DNA of 42,257 nucleotides from an uncultured Melioribacteraceae bacterium. Lineage in GTDB: Bacteria; Bacteroidota; Ignavibacteria; Ignavibacteriales; Melioribacteraceae. The position numbers were made by a program, and so were the translations under genes. The notes below the pieces were generated by a model, which had not been told where the DNA came from, made no database searches, and saw only the letters and a program-made list of their open reading frames with translations. Location of the stretch: contig CAYXXW010000001.1 in NCBI GenBank assembly GCA_964469115.1, positions 12,824 to 55,080 on the forward strand, read 5' to 3'. Of the stretch, positions 2,889 through 32,283 are shown piece by piece (the first letter of the stretch is position 1; each line of letters starts with the position of its first letter).

Positions 2889-3668
2889 CTAAATTCTGCC
2901 TACTGAACCTTGCTCTTTTTGGGGTAACAAACTCATTAGTCGGGATTTGACTATTGAGGGTATTTCCCCGCTTTGGATCGCCATTACTCCTTCTAACGAC
3001 ACTTCCATCATATATTTTTCTTCTAAGTGACATTGTTTTAATTTATCTGCAATTGGTAACCAAAGTAAATTTGCGCTTAAAATTCCCCATAGTGTTGCAA
3101 TAAAAGCTGAAGCAATACTATGGATTAAAGTATTGGGATCTTTACCGGCATTTGCAAGAGTCATGATTAAGCCCATAACCGTACCAATAATACCCATAGT
3201 AGGAGCATAACCTCCCATTTTATTAAACATTGAAATATATGCATCGTGTCTTCCCTGCATTGCTCTCATTTCACCCAAGGCAATGCTCTCTAGTAAATCA
3301 ATTTCTGTACCATCCAGTACAAAGTGCATCATTTTTTTAGGGAAATGGTAATTTAACTTGTTTAATTGCCCTTCAATTGCAAGAATTCCCTCTTGCCTGC
3401 TCTTTACGGAAACTTTTACAAAACCATCAATAAGTTGTTTAATATCGTACTTTGGTGGAAAATAAGCCATTCTAATTAGTGAAAACATCTTTTTGAATTT
3501 ATCGAAACCAACACCAATGATAGTCGCAGAAAAAGTTCCTCCAAAAACAATAAGCATTGCGGGGAACAAGAAAAGCGCTTTAAAGGATCCACCTTCAAAT
3601 AAAAAAGCACCGAATACTGCTACTAAGCCGAATAATAATCCGTAAAGACTTCCACTTTTTTTAAACAT
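2889..3668 (-). CDS. motA: Stator channel protein MotA (short PomA/MotP-sized form)
   Basis: The 259-aa product has four predicted TM segments and MotA/TolQ/ExbB motifs GGYAPTMGIIGTVMGLI and AFIATLWGILSANLLWLP. It is followed by motB. Its ATG shares 1 nt with the flgL stop. Confidence 0.9.
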   Translation of the reverse strand: MFKKSGSLYGLLFGLVAVFGAFLFEGGSFKALFLFPAMLIVFGGTFSATIIGVGFDKFKKMFSLIRMAYFPPKYDIKQLIDGFVKVSVKSRQEGILAIEGQLNKLNYHFPKKMMHFVLDGTEIDLLESIALGEMRAMQGRHDAYISMFNKMGGYAPTMGIIGTVMGLIMTLANAGKDPNTLIHSIASAFIATLWGILSANLLWLPIADKLKQCHLEEKYMMEVSLEGVMAIQSGEIPSIVKSRLMSLLPQKEQGSVGRI

Positions 3669-4918
3669 TATAAGTAATCCAGTAATGATCTAGGTAAAAT
3701 CATTGAAGAAATTCGATAACTTACGTCAAGAGAAAATTGAGCACTTTCTAAATCGATCAATGCTCGGGCGATATCGACTTCCTTTTCCATTGACAATAGT
3801 TCAGAAGTTTCAATTTCCCGATTTAATAAAATATCTTCAGATGCCTGCAATTTGTTTGAAATGCCGCCTGCCATGGAAAGTTTATCAAGCAAATGCTGAC
3901 TAAAGTTATTTACCATTTCAACTTGCTCTCCCGATGGTTTTTCTCCGTTCAATAATTTTTCTCGGATTGCTATCAGTTGGTTAAAAATATCAGCTTTCTG
4001 ATTCAAACTTCCAACCAAGCTTGATGGTGAATCAGATTCCGATAATGATTTTACATCAATTACAAAATCAATTTTATTATCACTATTCTGGATATGAATT
4101 TCTCCAAAAGGTTCTCCATCCAGCGATTGAAACTTGCCGTTTTCCGGATTAAACATAAGATCACTTACGGTTTGGTTCTCGATTTCGTTGGAATCAGAAT
4201 CTAAAATAGAGTAGTTCAGTTCATAAGTGTTTTCAGCTGTTTTTGTATAAGTAAGATTTAGAGTATACTCGTTTCCTTCAGCATCATAGATTTTACTTGA
4301 ATCAGTTTGATTTGAACCAATTTCAGCCGTTGAATCTAGATTACCATTTTGAGCAAAAACACTTTGAAACAATTCTTTACTGGTTACATTAAACTTTTGA
4401 GTAATGCCGGAAGAAATTTTTACTTGCCTATCACCACCTAGATGATCAGAATTTGCTACAACTCTATTATTTGCTTCATCATAATAAAATGGTTTAGAAT
4501 TATTCTCAGTTCCGGCAAAATTATACTGACCATTAAATTCAGTATTCGCCAACTCCAATAGAATTTCTAAAGAAGAACCAATCGAATCGGCAAAAGTTTG
4601 CAAATTATCACCGACAATACCGGAATTTAATTCAGTCAGCTTGATCTGAATATTTTGCATTTCCGTTTGCATAGCTTCCATTGATATTATAGAATCATCC
4701 AGAACCGATTTTGCATAACTGATATTATTTTTATATGTGTAAATTGTATTCAGTTGATCCTGCATTCTCATTATTCTAGAGTTGCTCAATGGATTATCAG
4801 ATGGTCTATTTACCCTACTCTGAGTTGTAAGCTTTGTTTGAATATCAGCTAAATTTCTTCTGCTTCTATTCAAATTAAAAATGAAATTATTTTGCAGCAA
4901 CGAATCTGGCACTCTCAT
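3668..4918 (-). CDS. flgL: Hook-associated protein 3 FlgL
   Basis: It has a flagellin-like N terminus (LADIQTKLTTQSRVNRPSDNPL) and C terminus (LESAQFSLDVSYRISSMILPRSLLDYL). It lies directly downstream of flgK. Confidence 0.88.
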   Translation of the reverse strand: MRVPDSLLQNNFIFNLNRSRRNLADIQTKLTTQSRVNRPSDNPLSNSRIMRMQDQLNTIYTYKNNISYAKSVLDDSIISMEAMQTEMQNIQIKLTELNSGIVGDNLQTFADSIGSSLEILLELANTEFNGQYNFAGTENNSKPFYYDEANNRVVANSDHLGGDRQVKISSGITQKFNVTSKELFQSVFAQNGNLDSTAEIGSNQTDSSKIYDAEGNEYTLNLTYTKTAENTYELNYSILDSDSNEIENQTVSDLMFNPENGKFQSLDGEPFGEIHIQNSDNKIDFVIDVKSLSESDSPSSLVGSLNQKADIFNQLIAIREKLLNGEKPSGEQVEMVNNFSQHLLDKLSMAGGISNKLQASEDILLNREIETSELLSMEKEVDIARALIDLESAQFSLDVSYRISSMILPRSLLDYL

Positions 4919-9888: not shown

Positions 9889-10686
9889 TTATCTTTTAAG
9901 GTTATTTGCAATTGACATCATTTCTTCAACGGTTTTTACCGTTTTGGAATTTATTTCATAAGCTCTTTGAGCAGAAATCATAGAGATCATTTCTTCAACT
10001 ACATCCACATTAGATGATTCAAGGTAACCTTGCTGAATTTCACCAAATCCTTCTATTCCTGGCTGACCTAAAATTGCGATTCCAGAGGAATCTGTTTCTG
10101 CATAGAGATTGTCACCAAGCGCTTTAAGTCCACCCGGATTAACAAACTTGGCTAACTCGATAGTTCCTAGTTCAATAGTTTCACCTCCAATTTCTTGCGC
10201 CGAAACAACACCATCTTTTGAAAACGTAAGACTTAGCACTTGTTCATTGATTGATAAACCAGGTTCAATTACATAACCGTCAGCAGTAACAAGCGATCCT
10301 TCCGATGATATTTTTAGAGAGCCATCTCTCGTATAAGCAAAATTACCGTCGGCTTTTCTTACCTGGAGAAAACCATCCCCGGAAATTGCGATATCCATTT
10401 GATGTCCGGTTTGCTGTAAATCTCCTTGTTGAAAAACTTTTTGCGTTGAAGATGTCTTAACACCGCTACCGATTTGAACTTTAGAATTTGTTTGTTCAAC
10501 AGTTCCCGGAATACTTTCTTGTTGAGGATTAGCAGAAATTTGCTGATAAATTAAATCTTTAAATTCTGCCCTACTCTTCTTAAAACTTGTAGTATTCATA
10601 TTTGCGATATTGTTCGATATTACTTGTATATTTAGCTGCTGGGCATACATTCCGGTTGCTGCAGTTCTTAATGCTCTTGTAGACAT
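9889..10686 (-). CDS. flgG: Distal rod protein FlgG
   Basis: The N terminus is MSTRALRTAATGMYAQQLNIQVISNNIANMNTTSFKKSRAEF. The C terminus is GYLESSNVDVVEEMISMISAQRAYEINSK. Confidence 0.95.
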   Translation of the reverse strand: MSTRALRTAATGMYAQQLNIQVISNNIANMNTTSFKKSRAEFKDLIYQQISANPQQESIPGTVEQTNSKVQIGSGVKTSSTQKVFQQGDLQQTGHQMDIAISGDGFLQVRKADGNFAYTRDGSLKISSEGSLVTADGYVIEPGLSINEQVLSLTFSKDGVVSAQEIGGETIELGTIELAKFVNPGGLKALGDNLYAETDSSGIAILGQPGIEGFGEIQQGYLESSNVDVVEEMISMISAQRAYEINSKTVKTVEEMMSIANNLKR

Positions 10687-10699
10687 TTATTTATCTCCT

Positions 10700-11407
10700 T
10701 TATACTTTTCCTAAATCTGATTCTTGACTCAATATTGAATCAAGCGATGTAATCATTTTTTGAGCAGCTTCATAATCTTTCTGAAGCTGAATCATTGCCT
10801 GCATTTCTAATATTGCATTCGTATTTGATGATTCTAAATAACCATGTTGAATTTCAAATTCATTATCTGTTGCAACTATATATTCTTTGTCTTCATTAAA
10901 AAATCTTTGACCTTCAGTTTTAGTTAACCTTTGTTCATCTGCTACTTTCATCATTTTTAATTTTGAGACAATTTTATCACCAGACTTTATTTCACCATTC
11001 TTAGTTATGGTTATATTTGCTTTTCTGCTAATTAATTCCTCTTGCAAATTGATTTCACCATTTTCGCCCATTACTCTAAAACCTTCTCTTGTTGCCAAGA
11101 ATCCTTGTGTATCAATCACAAAATCTCCGCTACGAGTAAGATGATCACCTTCCGGAGTTTTAACTGTGAAATATGCTTTGCCTGAAATAGCGGCATTTAG
11201 AGGATTACCGGTCTCTTCAAAAACACCTTCGGAAAAATCAGTTAACTTTCTTTGAATTGTAGCTTGTTCTTCATCAAACACTTCAGAAAAGGCTAAACCA
11301 CGCTTGAATGCAGTAGAATTTAGGTTCGCTAAATTATTAGCTACTATTTGAATATTTAAAACTTTATTACGCATTGCTGTTGCAGCATTTTCTAAAGACG
11401 GTTCCAT
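10700..11407 (-). CDS. flgF: Proximal rod protein FlgF
   Basis: The rod-family N terminus (IQIVANNLANLNSTAFKR) and C terminus (GYLESSNTNAILEMQAMIQLQKDYEA) are present. It is shorter than FlgG and lies directly upstream of it. Confidence 0.85.
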   Translation of the reverse strand: MEPSLENAATAMRNKVLNIQIVANNLANLNSTAFKRGLAFSEVFDEEQATIQRKLTDFSEGVFEETGNPLNAAISGKAYFTVKTPEGDHLTRSGDFVIDTQGFLATREGFRVMGENGEINLQEELISRKANITITKNGEIKSGDKIVSKLKMMKVADEQRLTKTEGQRFFNEDKEYIVATDNEFEIQHGYLESSNTNAILEMQAMIQLQKDYEAAQKMITSLDSILSQESDLGKV

Positions 11408-11408
11408 C

Positions 11409-11606
11409 TTATCCTTTTAATTCAGTTTGTTCATCAAATTTTTTGTTTTTGCATTTCATTAAATCAATAGTAAATTCTGACACTTCTTTTGATAATATTT
11501 TTATAATTCTATCTTCTTTAATTTGCGTCTCTAGTGATTTATTCAATATTCTGTTTTTACCATTAGTTATTTTATTTTTAACTGCATATTCAATAATTGA
11601 TTCCAT
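11409..11606 (-). CDS. Hypothetical 65-aa basic protein
   Basis: The ORF ends 1 nt before the flgF ATG and starts 25 nt after the orf383 stop. I recognise no family. Confidence 0.4.
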   Translation of the reverse strand: MESIIEYAVKNKITNGKNRILNKSLETQIKEDRIIKILSKEVSEFTIDLMKCKNKKFDEQTELKG

Positions 11607-11631
11607 AATGAAACAATCTCACTAACACATC

Positions 11632-12783
11632 TCACGATATTAGTTTGTTTAACTCCACATTTAGTTTTGAAGCTTTAGAATTATTTTTCACTTTACTATT
11701 AACTTTAACATCGGCATTAATTTCCCAATTACCTCTTAATCTATCTTCAATTGAAATAATTTCTTCTTTCTCGACCAAATTTTCCGGCAGATCAATATCA
11801 CCTGCAAAAAAATTATTTCTTATAATCCCTTTTAATTCAAAAGGAAGTGAATCACTACTAAAAATCACTTTGTAAGAAACCTTGTTATTAGTGTTAAATA
11901 ATTTCTTAACGCTATAATGAATAATCTCTAATTCATTATCTTTTTTAACAATAACAAAATCTGGATAGTAATCGTAATCTTTAAGAACAGATTTTTGGAG
12001 AATATACTTTGTGGAGTAAAGGATGTATTCCAATATAATTGCGGTATCTGCATTAGCGTTCGAATTTTGATACTCATTTAAGAGCTTTATAATCTCATAA
12101 AGACCTTTTGATTTATCGACCAATGATTTTGTGTTTTCATCTTTACGGTTATAAATTAATTTTTCACCAATTTGATGAGTAATATATTGGGGCAGATTAG
12201 AAAATAGAAGTTCATTAATTGCCTTAAACAAGTTTTCGCTTACCTCTTTAAAGGTTTCATTAAAAAGGTCACTGTATAGTTCATCAATAAATTGCTTATT
12301 CTTATCATTATTATTCCAAACAAGATTGATAACTAATGATAGCTCTAGTCCGTTAACCTTTATATATCTTAATAATTCAGTTAGCTGTACAAACTTCGAT
12401 TTTATTAGAATATTGCCTTCCTCAATAACCTTTAAAATTAACTTTCTATTAAATGAAGAATTCTTTAATTCAAATTTTTTAATTACCTCATCAAGCAATA
12501 CAGTGTTGTCCTTGCTTAACTCAGAGTTTAAAGTGAGAGAAAGAGTAAAAGGATTTGAACTCTGAACAATTGCTATTATTTCCTCTTTAATAGGAATTTT
12601 ACCTTCGATAAAGGCAATATACAGTTTACCATCAATCAATGCTTTAACGCCTTTTTCTAAAAACTCAATTGGTATAAGTTTAACAACAGAATTTTTGAGT
12701 GGCATATTTGGAGCAATACTTATAGAACTTCTAAGCTTTGTGATATTTTCAAGATTGATGATATTTCTAATTTCACTTTTCAT
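11632..12783 (-). CDS. Hypothetical 383-aa soluble protein, flagellar-operon embedded
   Basis: This long ORF fills the space in the operon frame, and its ATG overlaps the orf154 stop (ATGA). I see no signal peptide or TM segment and recognise no family. Confidence 0.6.
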   Translation of the reverse strand: MKSEIRNIINLENITKLRSSISIAPNMPLKNSVVKLIPIEFLEKGVKALIDGKLYIAFIEGKIPIKEEIIAIVQSSNPFTLSLTLNSELSKDNTVLLDEVIKKFELKNSSFNRKLILKVIEEGNILIKSKFVQLTELLRYIKVNGLELSLVINLVWNNNDKNKQFIDELYSDLFNETFKEVSENLFKAINELLFSNLPQYITHQIGEKLIYNRKDENTKSLVDKSKGLYEIIKLLNEYQNSNANADTAIILEYILYSTKYILQKSVLKDYDYYPDFVIVKKDNELEIIHYSVKKLFNTNNKVSYKVIFSSDSLPFELKGIIRNNFFAGDIDLPENLVEKEEIISIEDRLRGNWEINADVKVNSKVKNNSKASKLNVELNKLIS

Positions 12784-13244
12784 CTTGTTTGATTTTGTAG
12801 TTGTTGAATTTTGGCAGCTAAGAATAATTCACCTTTGGCAATTGATAACTTTTTAGCAGTTGATGTTATTGTTTTGCCTGTTAATCTCTTTTTCTCAATT
12901 GCGTTTGCCAGAGATTTTCTTCTTGAACTATTCTTATTTCTAACTGTTGGTTTAATTCTTTCATCTCTTATTGCACTAATATTTTTTTTATATCTGTTTG
13001 TATCAAATTTTTTGCTATCCGTTCTAGTTCTCTTCCAGTAAAACAATACCAAAACAAGAATTGCTAATTCACCAAAAACTACGCTGGTAGTTATAATTCT
13101 TTCAGAAGCACTATTTCCAAATATTGAACCGGTTTGCTCATTAGCTTCAACGACTTCAGCACTTTTTTTCATATCATAAGGTTTGCTTTGTGCCGAAAGC
13201 GTCAATGTTAATACAGTTAATATTAGAAATAGTATCTTTTTCAT
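12780..13244 (-). CDS. Hypothetical 154-aa bitopic membrane protein with a very basic cytoplasmic tail
   Basis: It has a signal peptide (MKKILFLILTVLTLTLSAQS) and one TM segment (VVFGELAILVLVLFYW), then a K/R-rich tail ending in the HTH-like GKTITSTAKKLSIAKGELFLAAKI. It has 4-nt overlaps with both neighbours. Confidence 0.6.
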   Translation of the reverse strand: MKKILFLILTVLTLTLSAQSKPYDMKKSAEVVEANEQTGSIFGNSASERIITTSVVFGELAILVLVLFYWKRTRTDSKKFDTNRYKKNISAIRDERIKPTVRNKNSSRRKSLANAIEKKRLTGKTITSTAKKLSIAKGELFLAAKIQQLQNQTR

Positions 13245-14539
13245 TTTCTTATTTTACGTTTTAATGGAAATGAAAGAACGAGTGCCGCTCCACTGTTTTC
13301 AAAGGAGCCAATTTCAAATTGACCTTCATGTTTTTTCATTAAATTTTTAATTATGCTTACTGATAAATTTTGCTGAACGTTATTATTTTTCGCTTTATTA
13401 GATGCGTCCACTTTATTCGTTGAAATAACTCTAAGTATTACATTATCATCTTTGAATCTTGTTTGAATAATAACGCCGCCTTTTTTAGTCTTACTATTCT
13501 TTATCAATGAAAATATATTTGTCAAAAGCTGATAAATATAATTTGGGTGACTTAAGATTGAAGGCAGATCATTCTCAAAATCTAGTATATATTCTAGGTT
13601 TGCGTTATCCAATGTTGATTTTACAAGAAAGAAATAATCATTAAGTATGCTGTTTATATTGCACGGTTGAATTTTTATGTCTTTCTGATTAACATTTGCA
13701 AACTTCACCAACCTTCCAACAACATTATTAATTTTTTTAATCTGAGATTTTATTTGAGTTAGTTCAATTTGTCTATCCAGCTCGTTATTAAGTATATCAA
13801 CATTGCTAGAAATTACTTGTAATGGTGTAACGATATCTTCCACAATACCTTCTGTCATTTCGCCTATTGCCGATAACCTAAAATCATTTGAAAGTTTTGC
13901 TTGGTATGTTTGCAGCTCTTCGTAAGTTTCATTTAGTTTTTCGGTGAGTTTTAATTTTTCCAGTTTTCCTAAAAGCATGTTCAAGAAAATATTAATACTC
14001 TTTTTCTCTAACTCAGAGATATTATTTTGGTCTAATGACGTAAGTAGAGCAAGTATTCCATAATTCTTTTTGTCATCATAAACCGGGAATATTAAGTAGA
14101 ACAATTTCGATCCGTTGCCATTATAGCTTTCCAGATCGGGGACCGTGATAGTTTTTCTATCTTCAAAAACTTCGCTGAAAATACCTTCTTTATTAAAATG
14201 ATTCATCTGCTGAACAATACTTAAATCGTCCTCTTCATCAAGAGGAATAAGCTCTCTATTAAAATCATCATAGAATAAAAGTTCAAGCCCTTTAACCGGT
14301 ATAATTCCTTTAACGTATCTTAAGAATCTTGAAGTAAGAATTTTAACATTTGTATCATGCTTAATTTCTTGTTCAAATGCCATCAAATTCTGGATGAAGT
14401 AGGAATACTTTTCGAGCATCTTTAAGTCATTTGAATCAGTTATAGAATGAACATTTTCTCTACTGTTATAAAGAGATAAATCGCTAATAGATTTATATAA
14501 AGGTTCAGCCCTTAAGGTATTTTCTTTGTGCAGTATCAT
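13241..14539 (-). CDS. Degenerate (likely phospho-dead) histidine-kinase-like protein with an N-terminal GAF-like region
   Basis: The DHp helix LSAIGEMTEGIVEDIVTPLQVISSNVDIL aligns to the ..GEmaAgiAHEIrNPL.. H-box, but Glu234 (codon 13838-13840) replaces His. The N-box Asn is kept (QLLTNIFSLIKNS). G1 (DxGxG becomes ISTNKVD) and G2 (GxGLGL becomes QQNLSVSI) are eroded. There is no TM segment. Confidence 0.7.
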   Translation of the reverse strand: MILHKENTLRAEPLYKSISDLSLYNSRENVHSITDSNDLKMLEKYSYFIQNLMAFEQEIKHDTNVKILTSRFLRYVKGIIPVKGLELLFYDDFNRELIPLDEEDDLSIVQQMNHFNKEGIFSEVFEDRKTITVPDLESYNGNGSKLFYLIFPVYDDKKNYGILALLTSLDQNNISELEKKSINIFLNMLLGKLEKLKLTEKLNETYEELQTYQAKLSNDFRLSAIGEMTEGIVEDIVTPLQVISSNVDILNNELDRQIELTQIKSQIKKINNVVGRLVKFANVNQKDIKIQPCNINSILNDYFFLVKSTLDNANLEYILDFENDLPSILSHPNYIYQLLTNIFSLIKNSKTKKGGVIIQTRFKDDNVILRVISTNKVDASNKAKNNNVQQNLSVSIIKNLMKKHEGQFEIGSFENSGAALVLSFPLKRKIRK

Positions 14540-15414
14540 TATGAGAATAAGTCCGAGTCAATTTCTTCACTAAATAGTTCTCTATAGCTTTCAACAAATG
14601 AATCTATTTCTTCCTCGTTGCCAATACCTAAAATTTCTAAAACTGATGTATCTAACTCCATACCTCTATCCATGTAGTATCCGCCAATTTCAAGTTTTTG
14701 AGTCATAAAATCGACTAAATGCACAATTGAAGTAAGCACATCTTTTTCCGGAGCATCACTTGGCTTATGATGATATAATATTGAGGTTGCTAAATGATCA
14801 GGCAAACTCCATTTTTGAGATAAGAAGTTTCCAATTTCTTGATGATCCATACCCAAGTATTTCTTTTCAACTTCAAGTACCGAAGTATCACCTGAGTTAA
14901 ATTCATCAACAATTTCTTGAAATTCATTCTTAAAGAATTTATGCATAACAGGTATTCCTAAATCATGCAGTAATCCGACAACAAAAGCTTCGCTGCCAAT
15001 TCTAAATCCTAAATCTTCCGCAACTCTTTTGCATGCAGTACCGGCTAACATTGAGTGCATCCAAAATGAATTTTGATCTAGATACTTATCAGATTTGTTT
15101 CTAAAAGAATCTACCATTGTTAATGCAACTACAATATTTTTAATATCTTGGTAGCCAATAATTAAAATTGCAAAATCGATTGTTGATACTTTTCTTGTCA
15201 AACCATATAATGGTGAATTCGCAATTGACAGAATTTTTGTTGATAGACCTTGGTCCTTTCCAATTATTTTGCTTAATGCCGATGTGTTGGTGGAAGGATC
15301 ATCAAGTAATGTTGATACTTCCAGCATTGTTGTTGACATTGCAGGCAGATTGTAGACGTTAGACAAAGCATGTTCCGATTTTTGTCTTTTTTCTTGGTTG
15401 ATTTGTTCTTCCAT
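14539..15414 (-). CDS. HDOD-domain protein (paralog B)
   Basis: HDOD motifs are present: LPAMSTTMLEVSTLLDDPSTNTSALSKIIGKDQGLSTKILSIANSPLYG, LLHDLGIP and LYHHKP. Its stop shares 1 nt with the next ATG. Confidence 0.85.
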   Translation of the reverse strand: MEEQINQEKRQKSEHALSNVYNLPAMSTTMLEVSTLLDDPSTNTSALSKIIGKDQGLSTKILSIANSPLYGLTRKVSTIDFAILIIGYQDIKNIVVALTMVDSFRNKSDKYLDQNSFWMHSMLAGTACKRVAEDLGFRIGSEAFVVGLLHDLGIPVMHKFFKNEFQEIVDEFNSGDTSVLEVEKKYLGMDHQEIGNFLSQKWSLPDHLATSILYHHKPSDAPEKDVLTSIVHLVDFMTQKLEIGGYYMDRGMELDTSVLEILGIGNEEEIDSFVESYRELFSEEIDSDLFS

Positions 15415-15440
15415 GTTTTTACTATCCTTATGATATGAAA

Positions 15441-16334
15441 TTAAATATTAATTGCTTCTAATTGATCTTCAAATAATTCTTTATAACTGTAAATAAAATT
15501 TTCCAAGTATTCTTCATCACCTAACCTAAGAATTTCAATGACTTCTTTATCAAGTTCGCTGCCATCATCCCAAGTAAAGTCTCCTATCTTTAATTGCTTT
15601 GTCATGTAATCTGCAAGATGCACAAGAGCAATAAGTTCTCTGTTATTTTCTGCTAATGAAGGATTGTGATGAAATGAAATAACGTCTGAAATTGAAACCG
15701 GTAAATTCCATCGATCCACTAAAAATCTCCCAATATCTTGATGCGTTATTCCCAAAATGTTTTCCTCAGCTTCTAAGTAAGTCATCTTATTTTTGATGAC
15801 TGCCTCTGTTATTTCTTTATATTCTTTATTAAAGTATTTGTATATAATCGGGATCCCAAGATCGTGAAGTAATCCGGCGGTAAAAACTTCACCGCTTGTT
15901 TGATAACCCAAGTCATCTGCAATACGCTTTGAAGCAGCTGCTGTCAAAATCGAATGGACCCAATATTTTGTCTGATCGAATTTTTTATTACCTAATACCT
16001 TAAGCGTTTCCATCATACTTAATGCAACAACTATATTTTTAACTTGATCGAATCCAAGAACTACAATTGCAAAATCGATTGTTGCTACTCTTCTTGGAAT
16101 TCCATGTAATGGTGAATTAGCGATTGTTAATATCTTTGTAACTAATCCCTGATCATTACTAATCATCCTGCCAAGAATTGATGCACTGGTTTTAGGATCT
16201 TCAATAAGGTTAGAGACTTCTAAAATAATCTGTGGAACAGTCGGCACATTGTAAACCGAAGAAAGTATTCGTTCAACTTTTTTCAGATTTGGGTTAATAT
16301 TTTCTTTTTCACTATTAGTCATATTGTCTTTCAA
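15441..16334 (-). CDS. HDOD-domain protein (paralog A)
   Basis: HDOD motifs are present: VPTVPQIILEVSNLIEDPKTSASILGRMISNDQGLVTKILTIANSPLHG, LLHDLGIP and SFHHNP. The start overlaps the fliA 3' end; an alternative ATG lies at 16322. Confidence 0.85.
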   Translation of the reverse strand: MKDNMTNSEKENINPNLKKVERILSSVYNVPTVPQIILEVSNLIEDPKTSASILGRMISNDQGLVTKILTIANSPLHGIPRRVATIDFAIVVLGFDQVKNIVVALSMMETLKVLGNKKFDQTKYWVHSILTAAASKRIADDLGYQTSGEVFTAGLLHDLGIPIIYKYFNKEYKEITEAVIKNKMTYLEAEENILGITHQDIGRFLVDRWNLPVSISDVISFHHNPSLAENNRELIALVHLADYMTKQLKIGDFTWDDGSELDKEVIEILRLGDEEYLENFIYSYKELFEDQLEAINI

Positions 16335-16947
16335 TTTTCTTTTTAAGTTCTCTCATAATTTTTGAGTGAAGCTGAGAAACTCTTGAAACAGTTATATCTA
16401 AAATTTTAGATACTTCTTTGTAGTTCATATGTTCATAATAGTAAAGTGTAATTATCAGTCTGTCGCGTTCGTTTAAATCCTTAATTGCTTGAACTAATAA
16501 TTCTTTCCTTTCTAATGAATGATATTCATCATCGGGAAGTTCATATTCAGATGGAATTATATCTGAAAGTGTGAAGCCGTCTTCAGAATCAAAAGGTTGA
16601 TCTATTGAAACGTTTCTGTAAACAACCTTGTTGGGATCTTGGTTTTGGTAATTTGCACGAGGTTTAATCTGAAGTTTTCTCAATTCGTCAATTATCTTTC
16701 CTCTAATCCTCTGAATCGCATAAGTTTCAAACTTGGTGCCGAAATCAGGATCAAATCTATCGATTGCTTCACTTAATCCTTCTACTCCAAACTGAAAGTA
16801 ATCTTTTTCTTCAACTACATTTAAATTCATAAATTTTGAGTTATGTATTACGTAGTGAACAAGATTTGTGTAATTAACCATTATTTGTTTTTTTAACCCA
16901 CTTGATGGTTCTGTTTTAAACTCTGTCCAAAGTGTGGTATTATTCAT
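16315..16947 (-). CDS. fliA: Flagellar sigma factor FliA (sigma-28)
   Basis: Region 2 reads FDPDFGTKFETYAIQRIRGKIIDELRKL. Region 4 has the HTH YKEVSKILDITVSRVSQLHSKIMRELKK. At 210 aa it lacks region 1, as is typical of the sigma-28 group. Confidence 0.92.
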   Translation of the reverse strand: MNNTTLWTEFKTEPSSGLKKQIMVNYTNLVHYVIHNSKFMNLNVVEEKDYFQFGVEGLSEAIDRFDPDFGTKFETYAIQRIRGKIIDELRKLQIKPRANYQNQDPNKVVYRNVSIDQPFDSEDGFTLSDIIPSEYELPDDEYHSLERKELLVQAIKDLNERDRLIITLYYYEHMNYKEVSKILDITVSRVSQLHSKIMRELKKKIERQYD

Positions 16948-16967
16948 ATTAATTTCTTCCTAATTGG

Positions 16968-17177
16968 TTAACTGTAAAAATTTTTTTGTTTTTCAATTGA
17001 TGTTTTATTTATTGCTCTTATAAATGAAAGAGCAAGAACAGTTAGCATTAGGGTTGCAACAAAAAAAATGATAAAGGATTTGAGCAATATATCCTGTACT
17101 AGCATACCCTGTTGGCTGAAAATTATAATTGAGATAAAAAATATTAACAAGCCCACATTTAGTATAATTTTATTCAT
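16968..17177 (-). CDS. Hypothetical 69-aa two-TM membrane protein
   Basis: Two hydrophobic helices are present. A good Shine-Dalgarno (AGGAG) lies 6 nt upstream of the ATG. It is the first gene after the 109-bp spacer and ends 20 nt upstream of fliA. Confidence 0.55.
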   Translation of the reverse strand: MNKIILNVGLLIFFISIIIFSQQGMLVQDILLKSFIIFFVATLMLTVLALSFIRAINKTSIEKQKNFYS

Positions 17178-17201
17178 ATTAATCTCCTGGCAATAGTAAT
17201 T

Positions 17202-17216
17202 TCAAAGAATATACCA
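17202..17216 (-). promoter_or_regulatory. Weak sigma-54-like -24/-12 element upstream of orf69-fliA
   Basis: The minus strand reads TGGTATattctTTGA, 24 nt before the orf69 ATG. It is one mismatch from the TGGCAT-N5-TTGA motif found upstream of flgB and fliL. Confidence 0.25.
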
Positions 17217-17286
17217 AAGGTTTTTTGGCAAAAAAATCGTTTTTTAGCTTAAATTCGGGGTTTTTATTTTTGTAGAATGGTTATTA

Positions 17287-18102
17287 TTAACCATTTGTTG
17301 GTATTCTTAACTTGTTTATTATGTCTGTAAATTGATGTGAAATTTTTGATGAGTTTTCAATACTAACAATTGGGTTTTGAGCTTGTATAGACTTAATAAT
17401 TTCTTCGGAAAAAGAAAGCTCACCAAGATAATTAATATCGTATTTTAAGAAGTGCTTTGTGGCTTTTTCCAGATTTCCAAATGCTTCTTCAGCTTCACCA
17501 TCCTTAAAACATTTATTTATTACAACATTTTTAACAACTTGTGAACCATTGCTTTTTAGAAGTTTAAAAATAACATATGCATCCATCACCGAAGTAGGTT
17601 CAGGTGTTGTAACTAGAATTATCTCATCAGATTTAAGAAGTAGCTGAATTGTACCCTGATCGGCACCAGAAGCAGTATCAAGTATAATAATATCATAGTT
17701 GTCTGAGAGAATTCTCAATTCCTCAATAAGAAGATTTGACCGTTCTTCATTCAATTTGGGATGATCTATTTTACCTGACTCCCCTAAAACCAAGTGTAAA
17801 TTCTCTGAATATATATAGATAATATCTTCTAAGGTCTGATTAAAAGTTAAGTACTGATATAATGTTTTTTTTGATGAAGCATTAAACATTACACTGAGAT
17901 TGGCAAAGTTTAAATCCAAATCCAATAATAGAACTTTCGATCCTTCATTTGATAATTCCACTGCAAGATTACTTGCTAAAAATGATTTTCCCGTTCCCCC
18001 TTTACCTGATGTTACCGAAATTATTTTGCATCCGGAAGTTGGTAAAACATTCTCTTTAAGTAAACCATTTAATTGATATAGTCTTTCAGCTTGACCAAGC
18101 AT
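17287..18102 (-). CDS. flhG: MinD/ParA-type flagellar number regulator FlhG (YlxH/FleN)
   Basis: It has the deviant Walker A ISVTSGKGGTGKSFLASNLA and Walker B IIILDTASG. It lies directly downstream of flhF. Confidence 0.9.
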   Translation of the reverse strand: MLGQAERLYQLNGLLKENVLPTSGCKIISVTSGKGGTGKSFLASNLAVELSNEGSKVLLLDLDLNFANLSVMFNASSKKTLYQYLTFNQTLEDIIYIYSENLHLVLGESGKIDHPKLNEERSNLLIEELRILSDNYDIIILDTASGADQGTIQLLLKSDEIILVTTPEPTSVMDAYVIFKLLKSNGSQVVKNVVINKCFKDGEAEEAFGNLEKATKHFLKYDINYLGELSFSEEIIKSIQAQNPIVSIENSSKISHQFTDIINKLRIPTNG

Positions 18103-19205
18103 TAGTTTAATTTCCCGCTGTAAACCATGTTAGCTATAAATTCACTGTCTGCAGCTATTATGTCATCTGGTATTACTTGACCATTTGTTAAATATTTAAT
18201 TGGAGTATCTACTTCGTTTACAAGATTAACAATATTGCCGTACGAAATCGCCTCATCAAGTTTTGAGAAAACTAACGCATCGTAATTAAATACTTTAAAC
18301 TTTCTAGCAACATCCAGCATTACTTTATAATCACTAGTGCTATTAAGTACCAAATAAGTTTCATCAACCTTAACTTGTTTAAGAAAATCATTTATTGAAT
18401 TTAAGAGTTTTTTGTTATTCTGACTTCTTCCAACAGTGTCAATAAAAACAATATCTTTATTCTTAAATTTTTTCATAAACTTTTGAACATCTGAAGGTTC
18501 ATATGCAACAAGAAAATCAATATTACTTATTTCAGAAAAAATCTTAAGCTGGTCTAGAGCACCTAATCTATAAGTGTCAATTGAGATTAAACCAATATCC
18601 AGGTTGTGAAGAATTTTAGAAATTACAGCTAGCTTTGCAATGCAAGTAGTTTTACCAACTCCGGTTGGACCAACAAGTGTAATTACTTTTGGTCTGCTTT
18701 GCTTGCTTAATTCAAATTCGCTTGTGGGAATTAAAGACCCTAAAGTTGAAACTAGATAATCATCTCTATTAGCTTCGTCAACAAATGGTTCATACTGACT
18801 TACTTTGTTTAATACGTTATCGATAATTTCAACGTTAAGATCTTTATCTAATAAATACTGCTTGATTTCATCAAAGTTGTTTGTACTCTGTTTTCTAATA
18901 TTTTTTTTCTGCGGTCTTGATGATTCTAGTTTTGGCTCATTTGAAGTACCGTAAATTTTTTCGGTTAATTTTTTCATTTCTGTTTGAAAATCTTGAACCT
19001 TAGCAACTTCCCTTGCACTATCTTTAATTTCAAATGATTCTTCTTCATCAATACTGGCGGTAATTTCAAAGAGTTTTTGTTCAACTCCATCTGTGAAGTT
19101 ATCAATAACCTTTGTACTTAAAACAATGGCCTCATCACCAAATTCACTTTTCATCTCGGCAATTGCTTCTTTAAGCGTTCTAGCTTTGAATTTCTTAATC
19201 TGCAT
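18102..19205 (-). CDS. flhF: SRP-type GTPase FlhF
   Basis: The N terminus MQIKKFKARTLKEAIAEMKSEFGDEAIVL is followed by an NG domain with GPTGVGKTT, DTVGR and a FSKLDE-type motif. Confidence 0.92.
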   Translation of the reverse strand: MQIKKFKARTLKEAIAEMKSEFGDEAIVLSTKVIDNFTDGVEQKLFEITASIDEEESFEIKDSAREVAKVQDFQTEMKKLTEKIYGTSNEPKLESSRPQKKNIRKQSTNNFDEIKQYLLDKDLNVEIIDNVLNKVSQYEPFVDEANRDDYLVSTLGSLIPTSEFELSKQSRPKVITLVGPTGVGKTTCIAKLAVISKILHNLDIGLISIDTYRLGALDQLKIFSEISNIDFLVAYEPSDVQKFMKKFKNKDIVFIDTVGRSQNNKKLLNSINDFLKQVKVDETYLVLNSTSDYKVMLDVARKFKVFNYDALVFSKLDEAISYGNIVNLVNEVDTPIKYLTNGQVIPDDIIAADSEFIANMVYSGKLN

Positions 19206-29781: not shown

Positions 29782-32283
29782 CTATGCTATATATTCGTAT
29801 GTGTTATAGCCTAATTGTTTTTTACTTTTTTCTTCTTCGGTCTCTCCTACCTGCCCCAAGTTTTCCGATTCGTTTTGAGATTTGTTATTTATTTTTTTTC
29901 CATCTCTTTGTTGCTTTGAATAGCTTAAAGAAATATTTAGAGAATTTAGTTGTAAACCATTATTACTTAACTGCTGCTGAAGTTTATCAATATTCTTTTC
30001 AACAAGCTGCTTTGCTTGCTCATTGTCTACTTCAATATGCGCCTTCAACATTTTATCAACTGTATCAAGTGTAATTTTCATTCTCCCAAGATGCTCTGGC
30101 CGAATGTCAAAAGATAAACTTCCTTTTTCCTGCCTAGAAATAAATTCGGATATTTCTTTTATCACTTCTACCGATTTAATAATTTGTGGAGCAGCTTTTG
30201 GTTCGGAAAACGTTGTTTTATTATCCGCAAAATTTAGTTGTCCGATTTCACTTTTGTTTAATGTCTGAAAATTAGTTTCAACATGTTGCTTCATCTCAAA
30301 TTGACCAGATGACGAAGATGAACTTTTATTAAACTTTGATTCATTATTATCTGAATTTGCATCACTATTTTTTGCAGTATTACCTTCAGCCGGTTTCTCT
30401 TCAATTGAATTGTCTATTGACTCATTCTTATCACTTACTGACTTAATTCCCCCTTTAATTTTTACCGAGAACTTCTTATTGTCTTTAACTACACTATTTT
30501 CAATATTGGGGTTTACTGAATTCTGTGTTGCTGCTTTTACTTCTTGATTTTCTTTTTGAACAAGTGTGCTATTATCATTCTCTCGAACTTTTTTTACTTG
30601 GTCGTCAGTTGCATTTTTTCCTTGACCAGTAACATTATTTTTCATCTCAGTTTTTAGATCAGAAATATGTTTAGGTTCTGATTTCTCAACCGAAGCAATT
30701 TTACTATTTACTGAGCTGGCTGGTCTAATGCTCTCATTTATCTTTGCCTTAGTATTATTCAGAGCTTTGATATCATCTACTTTATTTTGCTGACTATTAT
30801 TTTCTGTTTTAACTGTTTTTAATTCAACATTCAACTTTTCTGATGATACTTCTTTTGCATTAATTTTTACAGATTCTGATTTTTCCTTGGCTTTATTCTC
30901 ATTTGATTTAGCATTTTCTGCTTTATCATTTTTAAACTCAGTTGAAGGTGATTCTGAAATTACTTTTTTACCAGTCTTAACATTTAAATCAGTTTTAAAA
31001 TTTTTATTATCTACCGACTTAGGTTTTGATTCTTTATTTTCAACATTATTATTAGATTTTTCTGAAAGTTTTATATTACTCGATTCAGTGATCTTATCAT
31101 TTAGGGAACTACTACTTTTAGTGTTCTTAATCAAATGGATCTCTGATTTTTGTGAACCAATCTTCTGATTAAAATCAATTCTTCTTAGCGCTGACTCAAA
31201 TTCCTTTGGAGTTAATTCTGATTTACTTTTCACAGAGTTTAATACATTATTCTCATCTTGTTTTTTGACGATTGTAATTTTGCTAACACTGTAATCGCTT
31301 TCCTTTTTACCTTCATTAGTATTAACTAATTTTAGGTTTGTATAGGATTTGCTGGCGGAGACCTCAGTTTTAAATCCGTCTACTTTAACTTCATTGTTTT
31401 TTAACTCACTTGGTACAAAACTAATTTTTTCCAGCGGTACTTTACTAGTAGTTAAATCTACTTTATCACTGCTGTTTTTTAGAAAATTCAGATTGTGTAT
31501 GAATGTTTTGTTTGATCTAATATTTTTTGTTAAAGATTCAAACTCATTGCCATCATGAGAAAAAGAATAAACGCTTAAAGTAGGTTTAATAATTTCAGCT
31601 TGACCATTTGTTAATTTAATTTCGCTACTGCTTGCAAACAACTTATCTGCAGATTCTCTAGAAGTTCTAAAGAATGCTTCATTATTATTTTCGTTTCCGA
31701 ATATTGATAAGAGTCTTGATTTTTCAGGAACGACTAAGGTTTGAACAATAATCTTATCACTTACTGATTTTCCATTACCGTCTTTGACTAATTCAATATT
31801 TACAGCCGATTTTTGATCCTCAAGATTTAGCAATAAACCGGATTTCTGACTAATATTCTGCTCAATAATTTCTGCACCAATTAAATTATGTAAAAAGTTT
31901 TGCAACTCACCTTTCAATGGCTCTTTACTTATATAAGAAACAGCTTTATCATTTGATGCGACTAATTCTTCATTAATTAAAAGTTGTGCAATTTCAGTAG
32001 GTAAAATATCCGCCAATTCAGATTTGACTTGTTCACTGTGTTCATCAGTTAATAATCTGTACTTTAATTGAATAAGTTTCTGTTCACTTTCTAAGCCGAG
32101 TTGAAGATCCCTGTTAATTCCATTTAGATTCAATGATGACTTTCCATTTCCTTTTGTCGAGGGATTCATTACAACTTTGACAATATCAGAAAACAGATAT
32201 TTATTATTAGCAAGTTTTCCTGATTTAGGTATTAAACTCTGCGTAATTCCATTTTCACCAATAAAGAGAGGATTAAAAATCAT
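29782..32283 (-). CDS. fliK: Hook-length control protein FliK (unusually long, 833 aa)
   Basis: The C-terminal Flg_hook motif is SLSFDIRPEHLGRMKITLDTVDKMLKAHIEVDNEQAKQLVEKNIDKLQQQLSNNGLQL. The middle is long and rich in K/S/N/E low-complexity sequence. It sits between ylxF-like and flgD. Confidence 0.8.
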   Translation of the reverse strand: MIFNPLFIGENGITQSLIPKSGKLANNKYLFSDIVKVVMNPSTKGNGKSSLNLNGINRDLQLGLESEQKLIQLKYRLLTDEHSEQVKSELADILPTEIAQLLINEELVASNDKAVSYISKEPLKGELQNFLHNLIGAEIIEQNISQKSGLLLNLEDQKSAVNIELVKDGNGKSVSDKIIVQTLVVPEKSRLLSIFGNENNNEAFFRTSRESADKLFASSSEIKLTNGQAEIIKPTLSVYSFSHDGNEFESLTKNIRSNKTFIHNLNFLKNSSDKVDLTTSKVPLEKISFVPSELKNNEVKVDGFKTEVSASKSYTNLKLVNTNEGKKESDYSVSKITIVKKQDENNVLNSVKSKSELTPKEFESALRRIDFNQKIGSQKSEIHLIKNTKSSSSLNDKITESSNIKLSEKSNNNVENKESKPKSVDNKNFKTDLNVKTGKKVISESPSTEFKNDKAENAKSNENKAKEKSESVKINAKEVSSEKLNVELKTVKTENNSQQNKVDDIKALNNTKAKINESIRPASSVNSKIASVEKSEPKHISDLKTEMKNNVTGQGKNATDDQVKKVRENDNSTLVQKENQEVKAATQNSVNPNIENSVVKDNKKFSVKIKGGIKSVSDKNESIDNSIEEKPAEGNTAKNSDANSDNNESKFNKSSSSSSGQFEMKQHVETNFQTLNKSEIGQLNFADNKTTFSEPKAAPQIIKSVEVIKEISEFISRQEKGSLSFDIRPEHLGRMKITLDTVDKMLKAHIEVDNEQAKQLVEKNIDKLQQQLSNNGLQLNSLNISLSYSKQQRDGKKINNKSQNESENLGQVGETEEEKSKKQLGYNTYEYIA

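Follow-up and report, generated by a model that had tools for sequence, protein, structure and literature searches.

An accessory gene block between fliA and flgF in the flagellar super-operon of Ignavibacteria: a candidate module for tuning late flagellar biogenesis

On balance, and with modest confidence, we interpret the six genes lying between fliA and flgF in a 42,257-nt stretch of DNA from an uncultured Melioribacteraceae bacterium (hereafter the window) as a two-part accessory module belonging to a flagellar super-operon of the Ignavibacteria type, in which a signalling core and an export-switch pair would tune late flagellar biogenesis. The putative core follows fliA and contains two HDOD proteins, a pseudo-histidine kinase, and a bitopic membrane protein. 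The pair, which corresponds to fliK2-flhX, consists of one FliK paralogue and a shortened paralogue of the FlhB C-terminal domain.

Gene arrangement and conservation of the block

The open reading frames and junctions given in a preliminary description were recovered as described, all on the minus strand. The upstream boundary of the block is fliA (16315–16947, minus strand), encoding a sigma-28 family factor of 210 aa, and the downstream boundary is the proximal rod gene flgF (10700–11407, minus strand; Pfam Flg_bbr_C 9.5e-13 and LlgE_F_G_D1 1.1e-11), with the junctions of the six same-strand genes in between ranging from -8 to +26 nt. HDOD_A spans 15441–16334 when read from a TTG start, but the gene caller and the orthologues prefer the ATG at 16322 (293 aa), from which the gene overlaps the fliA stop by 8 nt, ATGACTAA. 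A gap of 26 nt separates HDOD_A from HDOD_B (14539–15414), which overlaps the kinase-like gene (13241–14539) by 1 nt (TAATG); ATGA overlaps then lead into the bitopic membrane protein gene (12780–13244) and from there into a gene for a 383-aa protein (11632–12783), followed by a 25-nt gap to a gene for a 65-aa protein (11409–11606) and a 1-nt gap to flgF at 11407. The tight overlaps running from HDOD_B to the 383-aa gene are also present at orthologous loci. The GC content of the block equals that of its flanks, and neither promoter-like sites (43 versus 38.8 ± 5.8 in shuffles) nor terminator-like sites (2 versus 2.5 in shuffles) were enriched in 10500–18200. The six block genes are probably co-transcribed.

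All six ORFs, including the 65-aa one, are real genes, since they occupy the same slot, in unchanged order, at about 40 independent loci; whole-block synteny extends over 7 GTDB genomes and about 35 loci from metagenomes. Since the loci were retrieved with block members as queries, this synteny is conditional on the presence of the block. Synteny of the core persists down to 35–39% kinase identity, and the conservation of the HDOD genes and the pseudokinase is similar to that of flhF and higher than that of flhG (66–81% versus 52–79% identity among relatives). The core genes are located directly downstream of fliA at every locus. At two loci (L009 and L010), the block stays with fliA and orf69 though the unit is detached from flhA/F/G, and nuo genes stand upstream in place of flhFG. 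The orf69 gene (16968–17177, minus strand), directly upstream of fliA and outside the block as originally delimited, encodes a small protein with two predicted transmembrane segments, for which no Pfam or NCBIfam family was found; it was present in every locus covering its position, at 41–91% identity, and belongs to a conserved unit with fliA and the block. Thus the neighbourhood comparison around fliA and flgF found linkage to flagellar genes in relatives, and the view that the block belongs to the flagellar operon, is conserved and restricted to the lineage, and is physically tied to fliA was supported by about 40 syntenic loci and by the linkage surviving separation from flhA/F/G. The divergent locus L055 contains a single HDOD gene. 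The FliK2/FlhX pair is missing from four divergent loci, and the two parts of the module therefore need not work together; the bitopic gene is still present there, as it is at all loci.

The putative signalling core

HDOD_A and HDOD_B are stand-alone HDOD paralogues with about 47% identity to each other (Pfam HDOD 1.8e-57 and 1.1e-53, respectively), in agreement with their initial assignment. HDOD_A matched PDB entries 3hc1 (8.6e-36) and Cj0248 (1vqr, 1.9e-14), and in the 3hc1 alignment, read by eye, its motifs WxHS, LLHD, H, HH, and HLAD align with the His/Asp metal-ligand positions of the Geobacter protein. Across 35 orthologues, conservation of these motifs is 95% or higher, and the metal-ligand set of HDOD_A appears to be intact; the corresponding positions of HDOD_B are partly relaxed. 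The same domain occurs in Cj0248 of C. jejuni, GsmR of Xanthomonas, and SadB of Pseudomonas, and motility is altered on the loss of any of these proteins. GsmR has a receiver domain, and SadB, a ligand-independent proteolysis adaptor, has a YbaK-like domain with an occluded pocket, whereas the block proteins stand alone. Unlike the known motility HDOD proteins, they are tandem paralogues encoded right after fliA and coupled to a pseudokinase, and no description of HDOD genes downstream of fliA was found in the literature searched.

The kinase-like protein (NCBIfam AtoS 7.9e-19) contains a GAF-like N-terminal domain, a DHp domain, and a degenerate CA domain. Profile searches against the PDB matched ZraS (9jfj, 1.3e-11), with 'GVAHEIRNPL' aligned to 'GIVEDIVTPL', and for the N-terminal domain the N-terminal region of PmGH (4mcw, 8e-6). 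All 42 orthologues carry Glu (E234) instead of the phospho-acceptor His and, at the position of the second N-box Asn, L, V, I, or M; no G1 or G2 box was seen in the alignments. By its sequence, the protein is catalytically dead, capable of neither phosphorylation nor ATP binding, and its earlier reading as a phospho-dead kinase is upheld by the invariant E234 and the lost ATP-binding boxes. Pseudo-histidine kinases such as Caulobacter DivL, in which His is replaced by Tyr, and Pseudomonas RetS signal by binding. The block pseudokinase resembles them in keeping the DHp–CA architecture with phospho-acceptor or ATPase function lost, a likeness from which protein–protein interaction would be expected as its mode of action. 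It differs from them in its invariant Glu, a CA domain without the N-box Asn, G1, and G2 motifs, a GAF-like N-terminal sensor, the lack of a cognate receiver protein encoded beside the gene, and the flagellar operon setting.

The bitopic protein starts with a hydrophobic, signal-peptide-like N-terminus, followed by a short variable segment, one hydrophobic transmembrane-like segment (topology read by eye), and a basic cytoplasmic tail of 84 aa (25 K+R versus 6 D+E) that ends in the conserved motif A-KKLSI-KGE-x-x-LA-AKI. Among 23 sequences, no variation was seen at R93, R109, A130, E139, and A143. The protein had no Pfam, NCBIfam, or PDB match, and only 56 relatives could be found in 5.8 billion proteins. 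Like FipA/FlrD (DUF2802) of gamma-proteobacteria and SwrB of Bacillus subtilis, it is a small single-pass membrane protein with a cytoplasmic C-terminal domain, and the genes of those proteins stand at the end of an flhF-flhG-fliA (or sigD) operon; within the fla/che operon, swrB is located at the end, after sigD. However, no sequence relationship to either was detectable, and the Ignavibacteria protein, unlike them, starts with a signal-like segment, includes a periplasmic part, and carries a KGExxLA motif of its own.

Because the kinase is dead and the start/stop overlaps point to matched production, we infer that the four core products could assemble into a membrane-tethered complex acting by protein–protein contacts. 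In such a complex, the dimeric DHp domain would serve as scaffold and the HDOD proteins as 'output' partners, a signal (metal, redox, or nucleotide) might be sensed by HDOD_A via its ligand set and likewise by the GAF domain, and the bitopic protein would hold the assembly to the membrane close to the base of the flagellum. Late flagellar assembly or sigma-28 output would then be regulated from the membrane, independently of phosphorylation. The overall role of the module would most likely be tuning a late step of flagellar biogenesis; candidates are sigma-28 output, the type III export gate (its activation or its specificity), and flagellar number, and the present results do not discriminate among FliA, FlhF, the export gate, and the motor as target.

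The FliK2-like and FlhX-like pair

The 383-aa protein (AF2 model, pLDDT 80.5) begins with a beta-barrel, continues with a helical domain, and closes with a degenerate T3S4 (Flg_hook-type) domain spanning residues about 262–365. Its family holds only 100 clusters in 1.84 billion representatives, and the full-length members are nearly all about 370–400 aa. Pfam Flg_hook was matched by 13 of the 70 members scanned (3/22 and 10/48; best 6e-7), and other Pfam families were matched by two members each at most. In a Foldseek search with the C-terminal domain, the T3S4 domain of PscP (5cuk) was the top match by probability (0.97) and the second by E-value (0.11). Family-level evidence, with weak Foldseek support, thus identifies the protein as a divergent FliK paralogue.

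The window's own 383-aa and 65-aa proteins both fall below Pfam thresholds, and the 65-aa protein was linked transitively, via intermediates in the same slot, to full-length FlhX proteins of 94–101 aa. Full-length FlhB_CC-like proteins occupy this slot in L056 and L044 (Pfam Bac_export_2 2e-19 and 3e-18), and a Bac_export_2 match was recorded by the gene caller in L009. The 65-aa protein itself aligned with the FlhB-type C-terminal domain in the expected register (hhalign P=0.029). With an HMM of full-length FlhX, the syntenic small ORFs ranked directly after true FlhBs, and an iterated search recovered the 65-aa ORF of the window at E=0.008 and then 1.2e-9. The chain is supported by a graded alignment, and this transitive evidence identifies the protein as an FlhX remnant: a paralogue of the FlhB C-terminal domain, truncated so that it aligns to roughly the last 55 residues of the window's FlhB, without the NPTH loop and the segment after it.

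The counterpart of these two proteins is fliK2-flhX, a little-studied pair found in Pseudomonas and Helicobacter and known as PP_4328–PP_4329 in Pseudomonas putida, where the operon is FliA-dependent, and with FlhX as HP1575 in Helicobacter pylori. In this pair, the gene of a FliK C-terminal (T3S4)-only protein directly precedes that of a small protein paralogous to the processed C-terminal domain of FlhB, in or next to a flagellar cluster, and the same arrangement is found in L009, L044, and L056. In contrast, FlhX is cut to about 55–65 aa of the C-terminal portion in the window's clade, the T3S4 domain has a 3-residue deletion in its 'NPxxLG' part, and the window's pair lies inside an operon, between the bitopic gene and flgF, whereas fliK2-flhX forms its own. 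The N-terminal two-thirds of the 383-aa protein form a folded beta-barrel and helical domain in the AF2 model. Both partners appear to have degenerated together in this clade. The preliminary description had called both proteins orphans and had recognized no canonical flagellar family among the six products; its second statement stands for the other four products, and for these two it gives way to the Flg_hook matches of conservative family members, the FlhX intermediates, and the pair already noted in P. putida and H. pylori.

Alternative explanations

A FlgM-independent sigma-28 checkpoint, an idea that goes back to the preliminary description and in which core proteins such as the bitopic tail or the pseudokinase would replace FlgM by binding FliA and keeping it sequestered until a signal, perhaps from the export switch via FliK2/FlhX, sets it free, seems unlikely to us. 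It would fit the position of the block directly after fliA at every locus, its translational coupling to fliA, and the finding of no FlgM-like product among the window's ORFs. FliA itself (NCBIfam FliA_WhiG 7e-45) is unusually short: its residues 5–102 and 136–205 align with 31–128 and 204–273 of WhiG in 6pfv, its top PDB match, and a variable 33-aa linker replaces most of region 3, with residues about 100–150 unconserved among 33 orthologues. Most of a surface that FlgM wraps in the Aquifex complex (PDB 1RP3) is thereby missing. FlgM and RsiG-(c-di-GMP)-WhiG both control sigma-28-family factors after translation, and RsiG provides a non-FlgM precedent, indicating that FlgM is not the sole solution. 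Nevertheless, the six products resemble neither FlgM, RsiG, nor SpoIIAB-type anti-sigmas in Pfam, NCBIfam, and PDB sequence searches, which leaves an anti-sigma function hypothetical, lying next to a sigma gene means little within a super-operon of about 50 genes, and the absence of flgM covers 42 kb only. For the 71-gene flagellar cluster of Ignavibacterium album, only FlgN, FliT, FliS, and FlhDC are listed as missing, and FlgM is not in that list.

It is similarly doubtful that the bitopic protein is an analogue, or possibly a remote homologue, of FipA/FlrD that recruits FlhF, with the HDOD proteins and the pseudokinase modulating FlhF/FlhG rather than FliA. FipA, which recruits FlhF, is small and membrane-bound, with a coiled region in the cytoplasm and a conserved domain at its C-terminus; its gene is located downstream of flhA-flhF-flhG-fliA and occurs only with FlhF/FlhG, and its invariant G, E, and L residues include an E-x-x-L spacing. 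The bitopic protein shares the final topology (by eye) and the flhF-flhG-fliA operon setting, its E139 is invariant and L142 occurs in 22 of 23 sequences, and the P. putida FipA/FlrD gene PP_4331 lies two genes from flhX-fliK2. However, none of the 23 family members matched Pfam DUF2802 at E<=1, a glycine 16 residues before the Glu is found in only 10 of 23, FipA has neither the signal-like N-terminal segment nor the periplasmic part, and the block lies away from flhF/flhG in L009 and L010. Much less probable still is that the block is a functionless, hitch-hiking or decaying relic, left by an ordinary cassette for two-component signalling or chemotaxis and by a fliK-flhB fragment that arose by duplication. 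The dead kinase, the truncated FlhX, the eroded T3S4 motif of FliK2, and the loss of the pair from four loci could be read as signs of decay, but the ORFs are intact and their lengths conserved across about 40 loci, with one exception seen (HDOD_A of L004, split into two ORFs), the pseudokinase and HDOD proteins reach 66–81% identity in relatives in which flhG reaches 52–68%, the pseudokinase Glu is invariant rather than drifting, and the start/stop overlaps are conserved.

A conserved block between fliA and flgF

The six minus-strand genes between fliA and flgF (11409-16334) encode two HDOD proteins (HDOD_A and HDOD_B), a kinase-like protein, a bitopic protein, a 383-aa FliK2-like protein and a 65-aa FlhX remnant, in this order. 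The linkage to flagellar genes, on which the preliminary description had built its case for a flagellar module, held up in relatives (MAGs labelled Ignavibacteriales, Melioribacteraceae or Ignavibacteriae): seven GTDB genomes keep the order flhA-flhF-flhG-orf69-fliA-HDOD-HDOD-pseudokinase-bitopic-FliK2-FlhX-flgF-flgG-flgA-flgH-flgI unchanged, and a metagenome scan with the kinase-like protein added about 35 loci of the same order, all loci having been retrieved with block members as bait. Four divergent loci, whose kinase-like proteins are 36-39% identical, contained fliA, HDOD, pseudokinase and bitopic genes without FliK2 and FlhX, one of them with a single HDOD gene. This indicates that the block is made of a core (the two HDOD genes, the pseudokinase and the bitopic gene) and a separable FliK2/FlhX pair. 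In the loci L009 and L010 (GCA_025612315.1 and GCA_025612155.1), the unit from orf69 and fliA to flgF follows NADH dehydrogenase (nuo) genes rather than flhA, flhF and flhG, which ties the core to fliA rather than to flhF/flhG.

Literature searches returned no paper in which HDOD genes or a pseudokinase follow fliA, and, with searches on Ignavibacteria and FlgM included, no description of the block in Ignavibacteria. As judged from sequence comparison, two block genes belong to flagellar families already known, one as a divergent FlhB_CC/FlhX member and one as a probable divergent FliK/T3S4 member. HDOD_A and HDOD_B are normal HDOD proteins in a setting that has not been described, and the kinase-like protein is a new pseudokinase variant.

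An exact protein match assigns the window to the metagenome contig NODE_134 of ENA ERZ23877650. It has a GC content of about 32%, and nearly all of its genes lie on the minus strand in one flagellar super-operon, whose order according to Pfam scans is cheA, cheB, flgB, flgC, fliE, fliF, fliG, fliH, fliI, fliJ, fliK (833 aa), flgD, flgE, fliL, fliM, fliN, fliO, fliP, fliQ, fliR, flhB, flhA, flhF, flhG, orf69, fliA, the six block genes, flgF, flgG, flgA, flgH, flgI, flgJ, flgN, flgK, flgL, motA, motB, fliW, csrA and a response regulator gene. The six ORFs and their junctions were recovered exactly as in the preliminary description, except for the start of HDOD_A. The HDOD_B/kinase-like junction is a 1-nt overlap (TAATG), the kinase-like/bitopic and bitopic/383-aa junctions are ATGA overlaps, and gaps of 26, 25 and 1 nt make up the remainder. 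HDOD_A itself is a real ORF; its start is most likely the ATG at 16322, favoured by the gene caller and by the orthologues, which would give an 8-nt overlap with the fliA stop (ATGACTAA). Promoter-like and terminator-like matches were at background level over 10500-18200, and therefore co-transcription of the block is plausible. The largest gap nearby, 109 nt between flhG and orf69 (17178-17286), may hold an internal promoter. The small orf69 (16968-17177, minus strand), a member of no known family for which two transmembrane segments are predicted, lies directly 5' of fliA in every locus, including L009 and L010, which lack flhFG upstream and in which the super-operon is split exactly upstream of orf69.

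Proteins of the core

Both HDOD assignments of the preliminary description were confirmed over the full Pfam HDOD profile (PF08668), at 1.8e-57 for HDOD_A (profile 2-196 of 196) and 1.1e-53 for HDOD_B (1-196 of 196), the two proteins being about 47% identical. The PDB HDOD structures 3hc1, 9qzk, 3m1t and 1vqr were matched, HDOD_A reaching 8.6e-36 with the Geobacter structure 3HC1 and 1.9e-14 with C. jejuni Cj0248 (1VQR). The HDOD_A motifs WxHS, LLHD, H, HH and HLAD align with the metal ligands of 3HC1, as assigned by eye from the 3hc1 alignment and the published description of that structure, and are at least 95% conserved among 35 orthologues; the ligand motifs of HDOD_B are partly relaxed. 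HDOD_A is thereby predicted to keep an intact His/Asp metal-ligand set and to belong to the metal-binding HDOD subtype represented by 3HC1. HDOD mutants are changed in motility in Xanthomonas, Campylobacter and Pseudomonas, and SadB, itself an HDOD protein, serves in a ligand-independent way as an adaptor through which a regulator is proteolysed. Among about 40 loci, a single disrupted block gene was seen, the HDOD_A orthologue of locus L004 (6497-7389), which is split into two overlapping ORFs by a frameshift or an assembly error.

The kinase-like protein matched the NCBIfam families AtoS (7.9e-19) and ZraS (6.3e-11), its profile matched PDB ZraS 9jfj over residues 216-431 (1.3e-11), and Pfam HisKA and HATPase_c were found below threshold; by these matches its DHp and CA domains are homologous to those of AtoS/ZraS-type kinases. 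Its N-terminal domain, which matched the N-terminal part of PmGH, an HD-GYP protein (4MCW), at 8e-6, is taken as a putative GAF domain, in agreement with a weak Pfam GAF_2 match. The protein had been called phospho-dead from the single sequence, and this extends to the family: the phospho-acceptor His is replaced by Glu (E234) in all 42 orthologues, down to 35% identity, 'VEDIVTPL' of the pseudokinase being aligned with 'AHEIRNPL' of ZraS. With the boxes located by eye on the ZraS alignment, the second Asn position of the N-box (the Mg-ATP Asn) was occupied by L, V, I or M in 42 of 42 orthologues, and no G1 (DxGxG) or G2 (GxGxG) box was seen in the corresponding regions, which read 'ISTNKV' and 'NLSVSI'. 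Because of the invariant Glu at the His position and the loss of the ATP-binding boxes, the protein is a genuine pseudokinase, and a strongly constrained one; with relatives it shares 66-78% identity, versus 52-68% for flhG. In the two most divergent pseudokinases (L055:6001-7314 and L057:306-1616), a His follows the invariant Glu ('GIVEHIFSPL') and is shifted by one residue from where the phospho-acceptor canonically lies.

The bitopic protein, read by eye, begins with a hydrophobic, signal-peptide-like N-terminus, followed by a variable segment, a single transmembrane-like hydrophobic segment and an 84-residue predicted cytoplasmic tail at residues 71-154, which is rich in basic residues (25 K+R versus 6 D+E) and contains the conserved motifs 'LKxNIxxLRxEKI', 'LRKxL' and a terminal 'AKKLSI(S/A)KGExxLAAK(I/L)'. 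It is without a Pfam, NCBIfam or PDB relative, and just 56 relatives, all without annotation, were found among 5.8 billion proteins. A Pfam scan of 23 bitopic proteins gave isolated single matches (DUF6954, DUF6115 and TssO), which were treated as chance, and PDB sequence and profile searches with the family alignments A1, A3, A4, A6 and A7 (A4 and A7 being those of the bitopic protein) gave nothing meaningful.

The FliK2/FlhX pair

The 383-aa protein had no direct match to any Pfam or NCBIfam family, and a profile search run exhaustively over 1.84 billion representative proteins recovered just 100 relatives, the full-length members being nearly all about 370-400 aa. Its AlphaFold model (pLDDT 80.5) starts with a beta-barrel, continues with a helical bundle and ends in an alpha/beta domain, the barrel and bundle being confidently predicted over residues 33-268. 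Three observations point to a probable tie of the C-terminal domain to FliK. In the more conservative members of the family it reads FliK-like, as in the L009 homologue ('KLDMNPGLLGKVAVKGFLSGQNISAAFGASEETVKELEEE...'). Pfam Flg_hook (PF02120) was matched by three of 22 locus homologues (6.1e-6, 1.7e-3 and 2.1e-3) and, among 48 more distant representatives, by 10 (best 6.1e-7), all individually listed scores being below the 29.8-bit gathering score; every other Pfam family was matched by at most two members. Finally, for the C-terminal domain modelled alone (pLDDT 80.3), the PDB match of highest probability was the T3S4 domain of PscP, 5CUK (probability 0.97, E 0.11, TM 0.44 on the target, second by E-value). 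This model-based match is suggestive, not decisive, of a T3S4 fold; Foldseek found no PDB match at E<=1e-3 with the C-terminal domain. The full-length model likewise had none at E<=1e-3: 5cuk ranked 32nd, and the N-terminal domain of eIF2alpha, with its S1-like barrel and helices, was matched only weakly. The window's own protein gave no Flg_hook match, and hhalign of the family against the C-terminus of the window's own FliK was not significant; a 3-residue deletion at the 'NPxxLG' motif marks the window's clade. The family-level matches nevertheless revise the earlier view that no canonical flagellar family is represented among the block products, the 383-aa protein being a putative divergent FliK/T3S4 member. 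The extended, largely disordered N-terminus expected of the canonical hook-length ruler is not seen: this part is folded in the model, and family members keep to about 370-400 aa. The window has a canonical FliK of 833 aa (29782-32283, Flg_hook 1.1e-17).

Between the 383-aa homologue and flgF, L009/L010 and the loci L044 and L056 encode a protein of 94-101 aa. Those of L056 and L044 matched positions 262-335 of Pfam Bac_export_2 (PF01312) at 2e-19 and 3e-18, a Bac_export_2 match is on record for that of L009, and these proteins are clear paralogues of the FlhB C-terminal domain (FlhX). The slot ORFs of other loci are 52-73 aa. The window's 65-aa ORF had no match in a direct Pfam search, and an HMM of the 65-aa family alone (eight sequences) did not reach FlhB/FlhX, the link having emerged only from a start with full-length FlhX plus intermediates. 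When an HMM of two full-length FlhX sequences was searched against a database of 2607 ORFs (all ORFs of the window and the loci), true FlhBs came first and the next eight hits were without exception syntenic small ORFs, among them those of locus L032 (3.8e-6), locus L016 (1.1e-3) and the window (0.37). With L056 and L032 added to the seed, the window ORF reached E=0.008 and, one round later, 1.2e-9, and the iterated search recruited no unrelated, non-syntenic ORF. A comparison of the 65-aa family with L009 FlhX by hhalign placed residues 3-39 on 38-74 (30% identity, P=0.029), in the expected register. The 65-aa protein, described earlier as an orphan, is thus reached through syntenic intermediates as a divergent FlhB_CC/FlhX member, its homology to FlhB_CC being transitive within the 2607-ORF database.

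In a graded alignment the 65-aa remnant covers about 55 residues at the C-terminal end of the window's FlhB, without the NPTH loop and the following segment 'AVALxY...APxVVAKG', whereas L009, L044 and L056 retain a complete FlhB_CC. As full FlhX and a Flg_hook-matching 383-aa homologue occur in the same three loci, FliK2 and FlhX have apparently degenerated together. The pair matches the fliK2-flhX operon of P. putida, described in a preprint as FliA-dependent and of unknown function; the same preprint cites that H. pylori FlhX can partly replace FlhB_CC. FlhX/FliK2 pairs are widespread and unexplained, and the natural series from full-length FlhX to a remnant of about 55 aa, with its FliK2 partner eroding in parallel, might reveal the parts of the FlhB_C-FliK_C interface that are important.

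FliA and possible targets of the core

The comparisons establish a catalytically dead DHp-CA scaffold whose N-terminal domain is GAF-like, two HDOD proteins, of which HDOD_A has the intact ligand set, a membrane protein with a basic tail, conserved start/stop overlaps and a fixed linkage to fliA. On this basis, the pseudokinase, HDOD_A, HDOD_B and the bitopic protein might form a membrane-tethered, phosphorylation-independent complex that would adjust a late flagellar step, and the adjacent FliK2/FlhX pair might touch the export-specificity switch. In its general form, a core complex tuning a late flagellar step, we consider this reading slightly better than an even bet. Its target may be FliA, the export gate or the motor, or else FlhF in the case of a FipA-like bitopic protein. 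The export gate would recall SwrB of Bacillus subtilis, which is like the bitopic protein in its position after the sigma-28 gene and in membrane anchoring, the two being compared on these features alone. For FlhF, the single-pass architecture (by eye), the flhF/flhG context and an E139-x-x-L142 motif would fit FipA/FlrD; none of 23 bitopic family members matched the DUF2802 (FipA/FlrD) profile at E<=1, and of the invariant G, E and L of FipA/FlrD the glycine, expected 16 residues before the Glu, is shared by 10 of 23 only. This poor conservation weakens the idea, and a FipA-like protein directing the block to FlhF is unlikely in our view.

FliA as the target might be favoured by the sigma factor itself. 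FliA (16315-16947, minus strand) has just 210 aa and, compared with WhiG (6pfv), a poorly conserved 33-residue linker where WhiG has some 75 residues of region 3; its orthologues have 207-215 aa, and therefore the sigma-28 of this lineage appears to have little or no region 3. FlgM was not found among the small ORFs of the 42-kb window, and none of the six products, orf69 or the 80-aa and 81-aa ORFs orf80 and orf81 matched FlgM (PF04316 profile and PDB chains); a search for sequence beyond the window by way of the response regulator gene led back to the same contig only. RsiG with c-di-GMP is a known case of an anti-sigma other than FlgM that holds a factor of the sigma-28 family. The degenerate CA domain could recall anti-sigmas of the SpoIIAB/RsbW type; these need ATP binding, which the pseudokinase has lost, so that such a role was not adopted. 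That the block replaces FlgM seems improbable on balance. Less probable still, and quite doubtful, is the specific form of a FlgM-independent sigma-28 checkpoint, in which the core complex would hold the region-3-less FliA and release it at the specificity switch of the export gate, with FliK2/FlhX reading the switch and with HDOD_A or GAF supplying a second input from a metal, redox or nucleotide signal.

HDOD is among the commonest bacterial signalling domains and still lacks a general mechanism, and the ordering of flagellar gene expression outside Proteobacteria and Firmicutes is largely unknown. The block joins both questions with that of FlhX/FliK2 in one conserved, translationally coupled unit beside a truncated sigma-28. 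Melioribacter roseus, a cultured motile relative of the same class, is a candidate carrier of the block, and therefore these hypotheses can be tested by deletion and interaction assays. Should the block prove to be an ordinary accessory regulator, the gain would be a better annotation of seven 'hypothetical' genes per Ignavibacteria flagellar cluster.

Several other minus-strand ORFs of the super-operon stand out. The 80-aa ORF between flgC and fliE (38192-38434) had no credible Pfam match, and the 81-aa ORF between cheB and flgB (39407-39652) had only a sub-threshold match to Pfam Trp_ring (E 0.0088). Between fliJ and fliK, a 182-aa protein (32280-32828) with weak MgtE_N and FliG_M-like matches only may be a FlbB-like accessory protein. 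A FlgL-like hook-associated protein (3668-4918; Flagellin_N 1.5e-10) carries an internal segment matching the FlgE D2 domain (1.4e-6). The response regulator after csrA (877-1569) combines a receiver domain with a C-terminal part of about 110 aa of no known family, and the partial ORF that follows it (1-850) has a C-terminus resembling MotA/PomA when read by eye, a hint of a second stator set.
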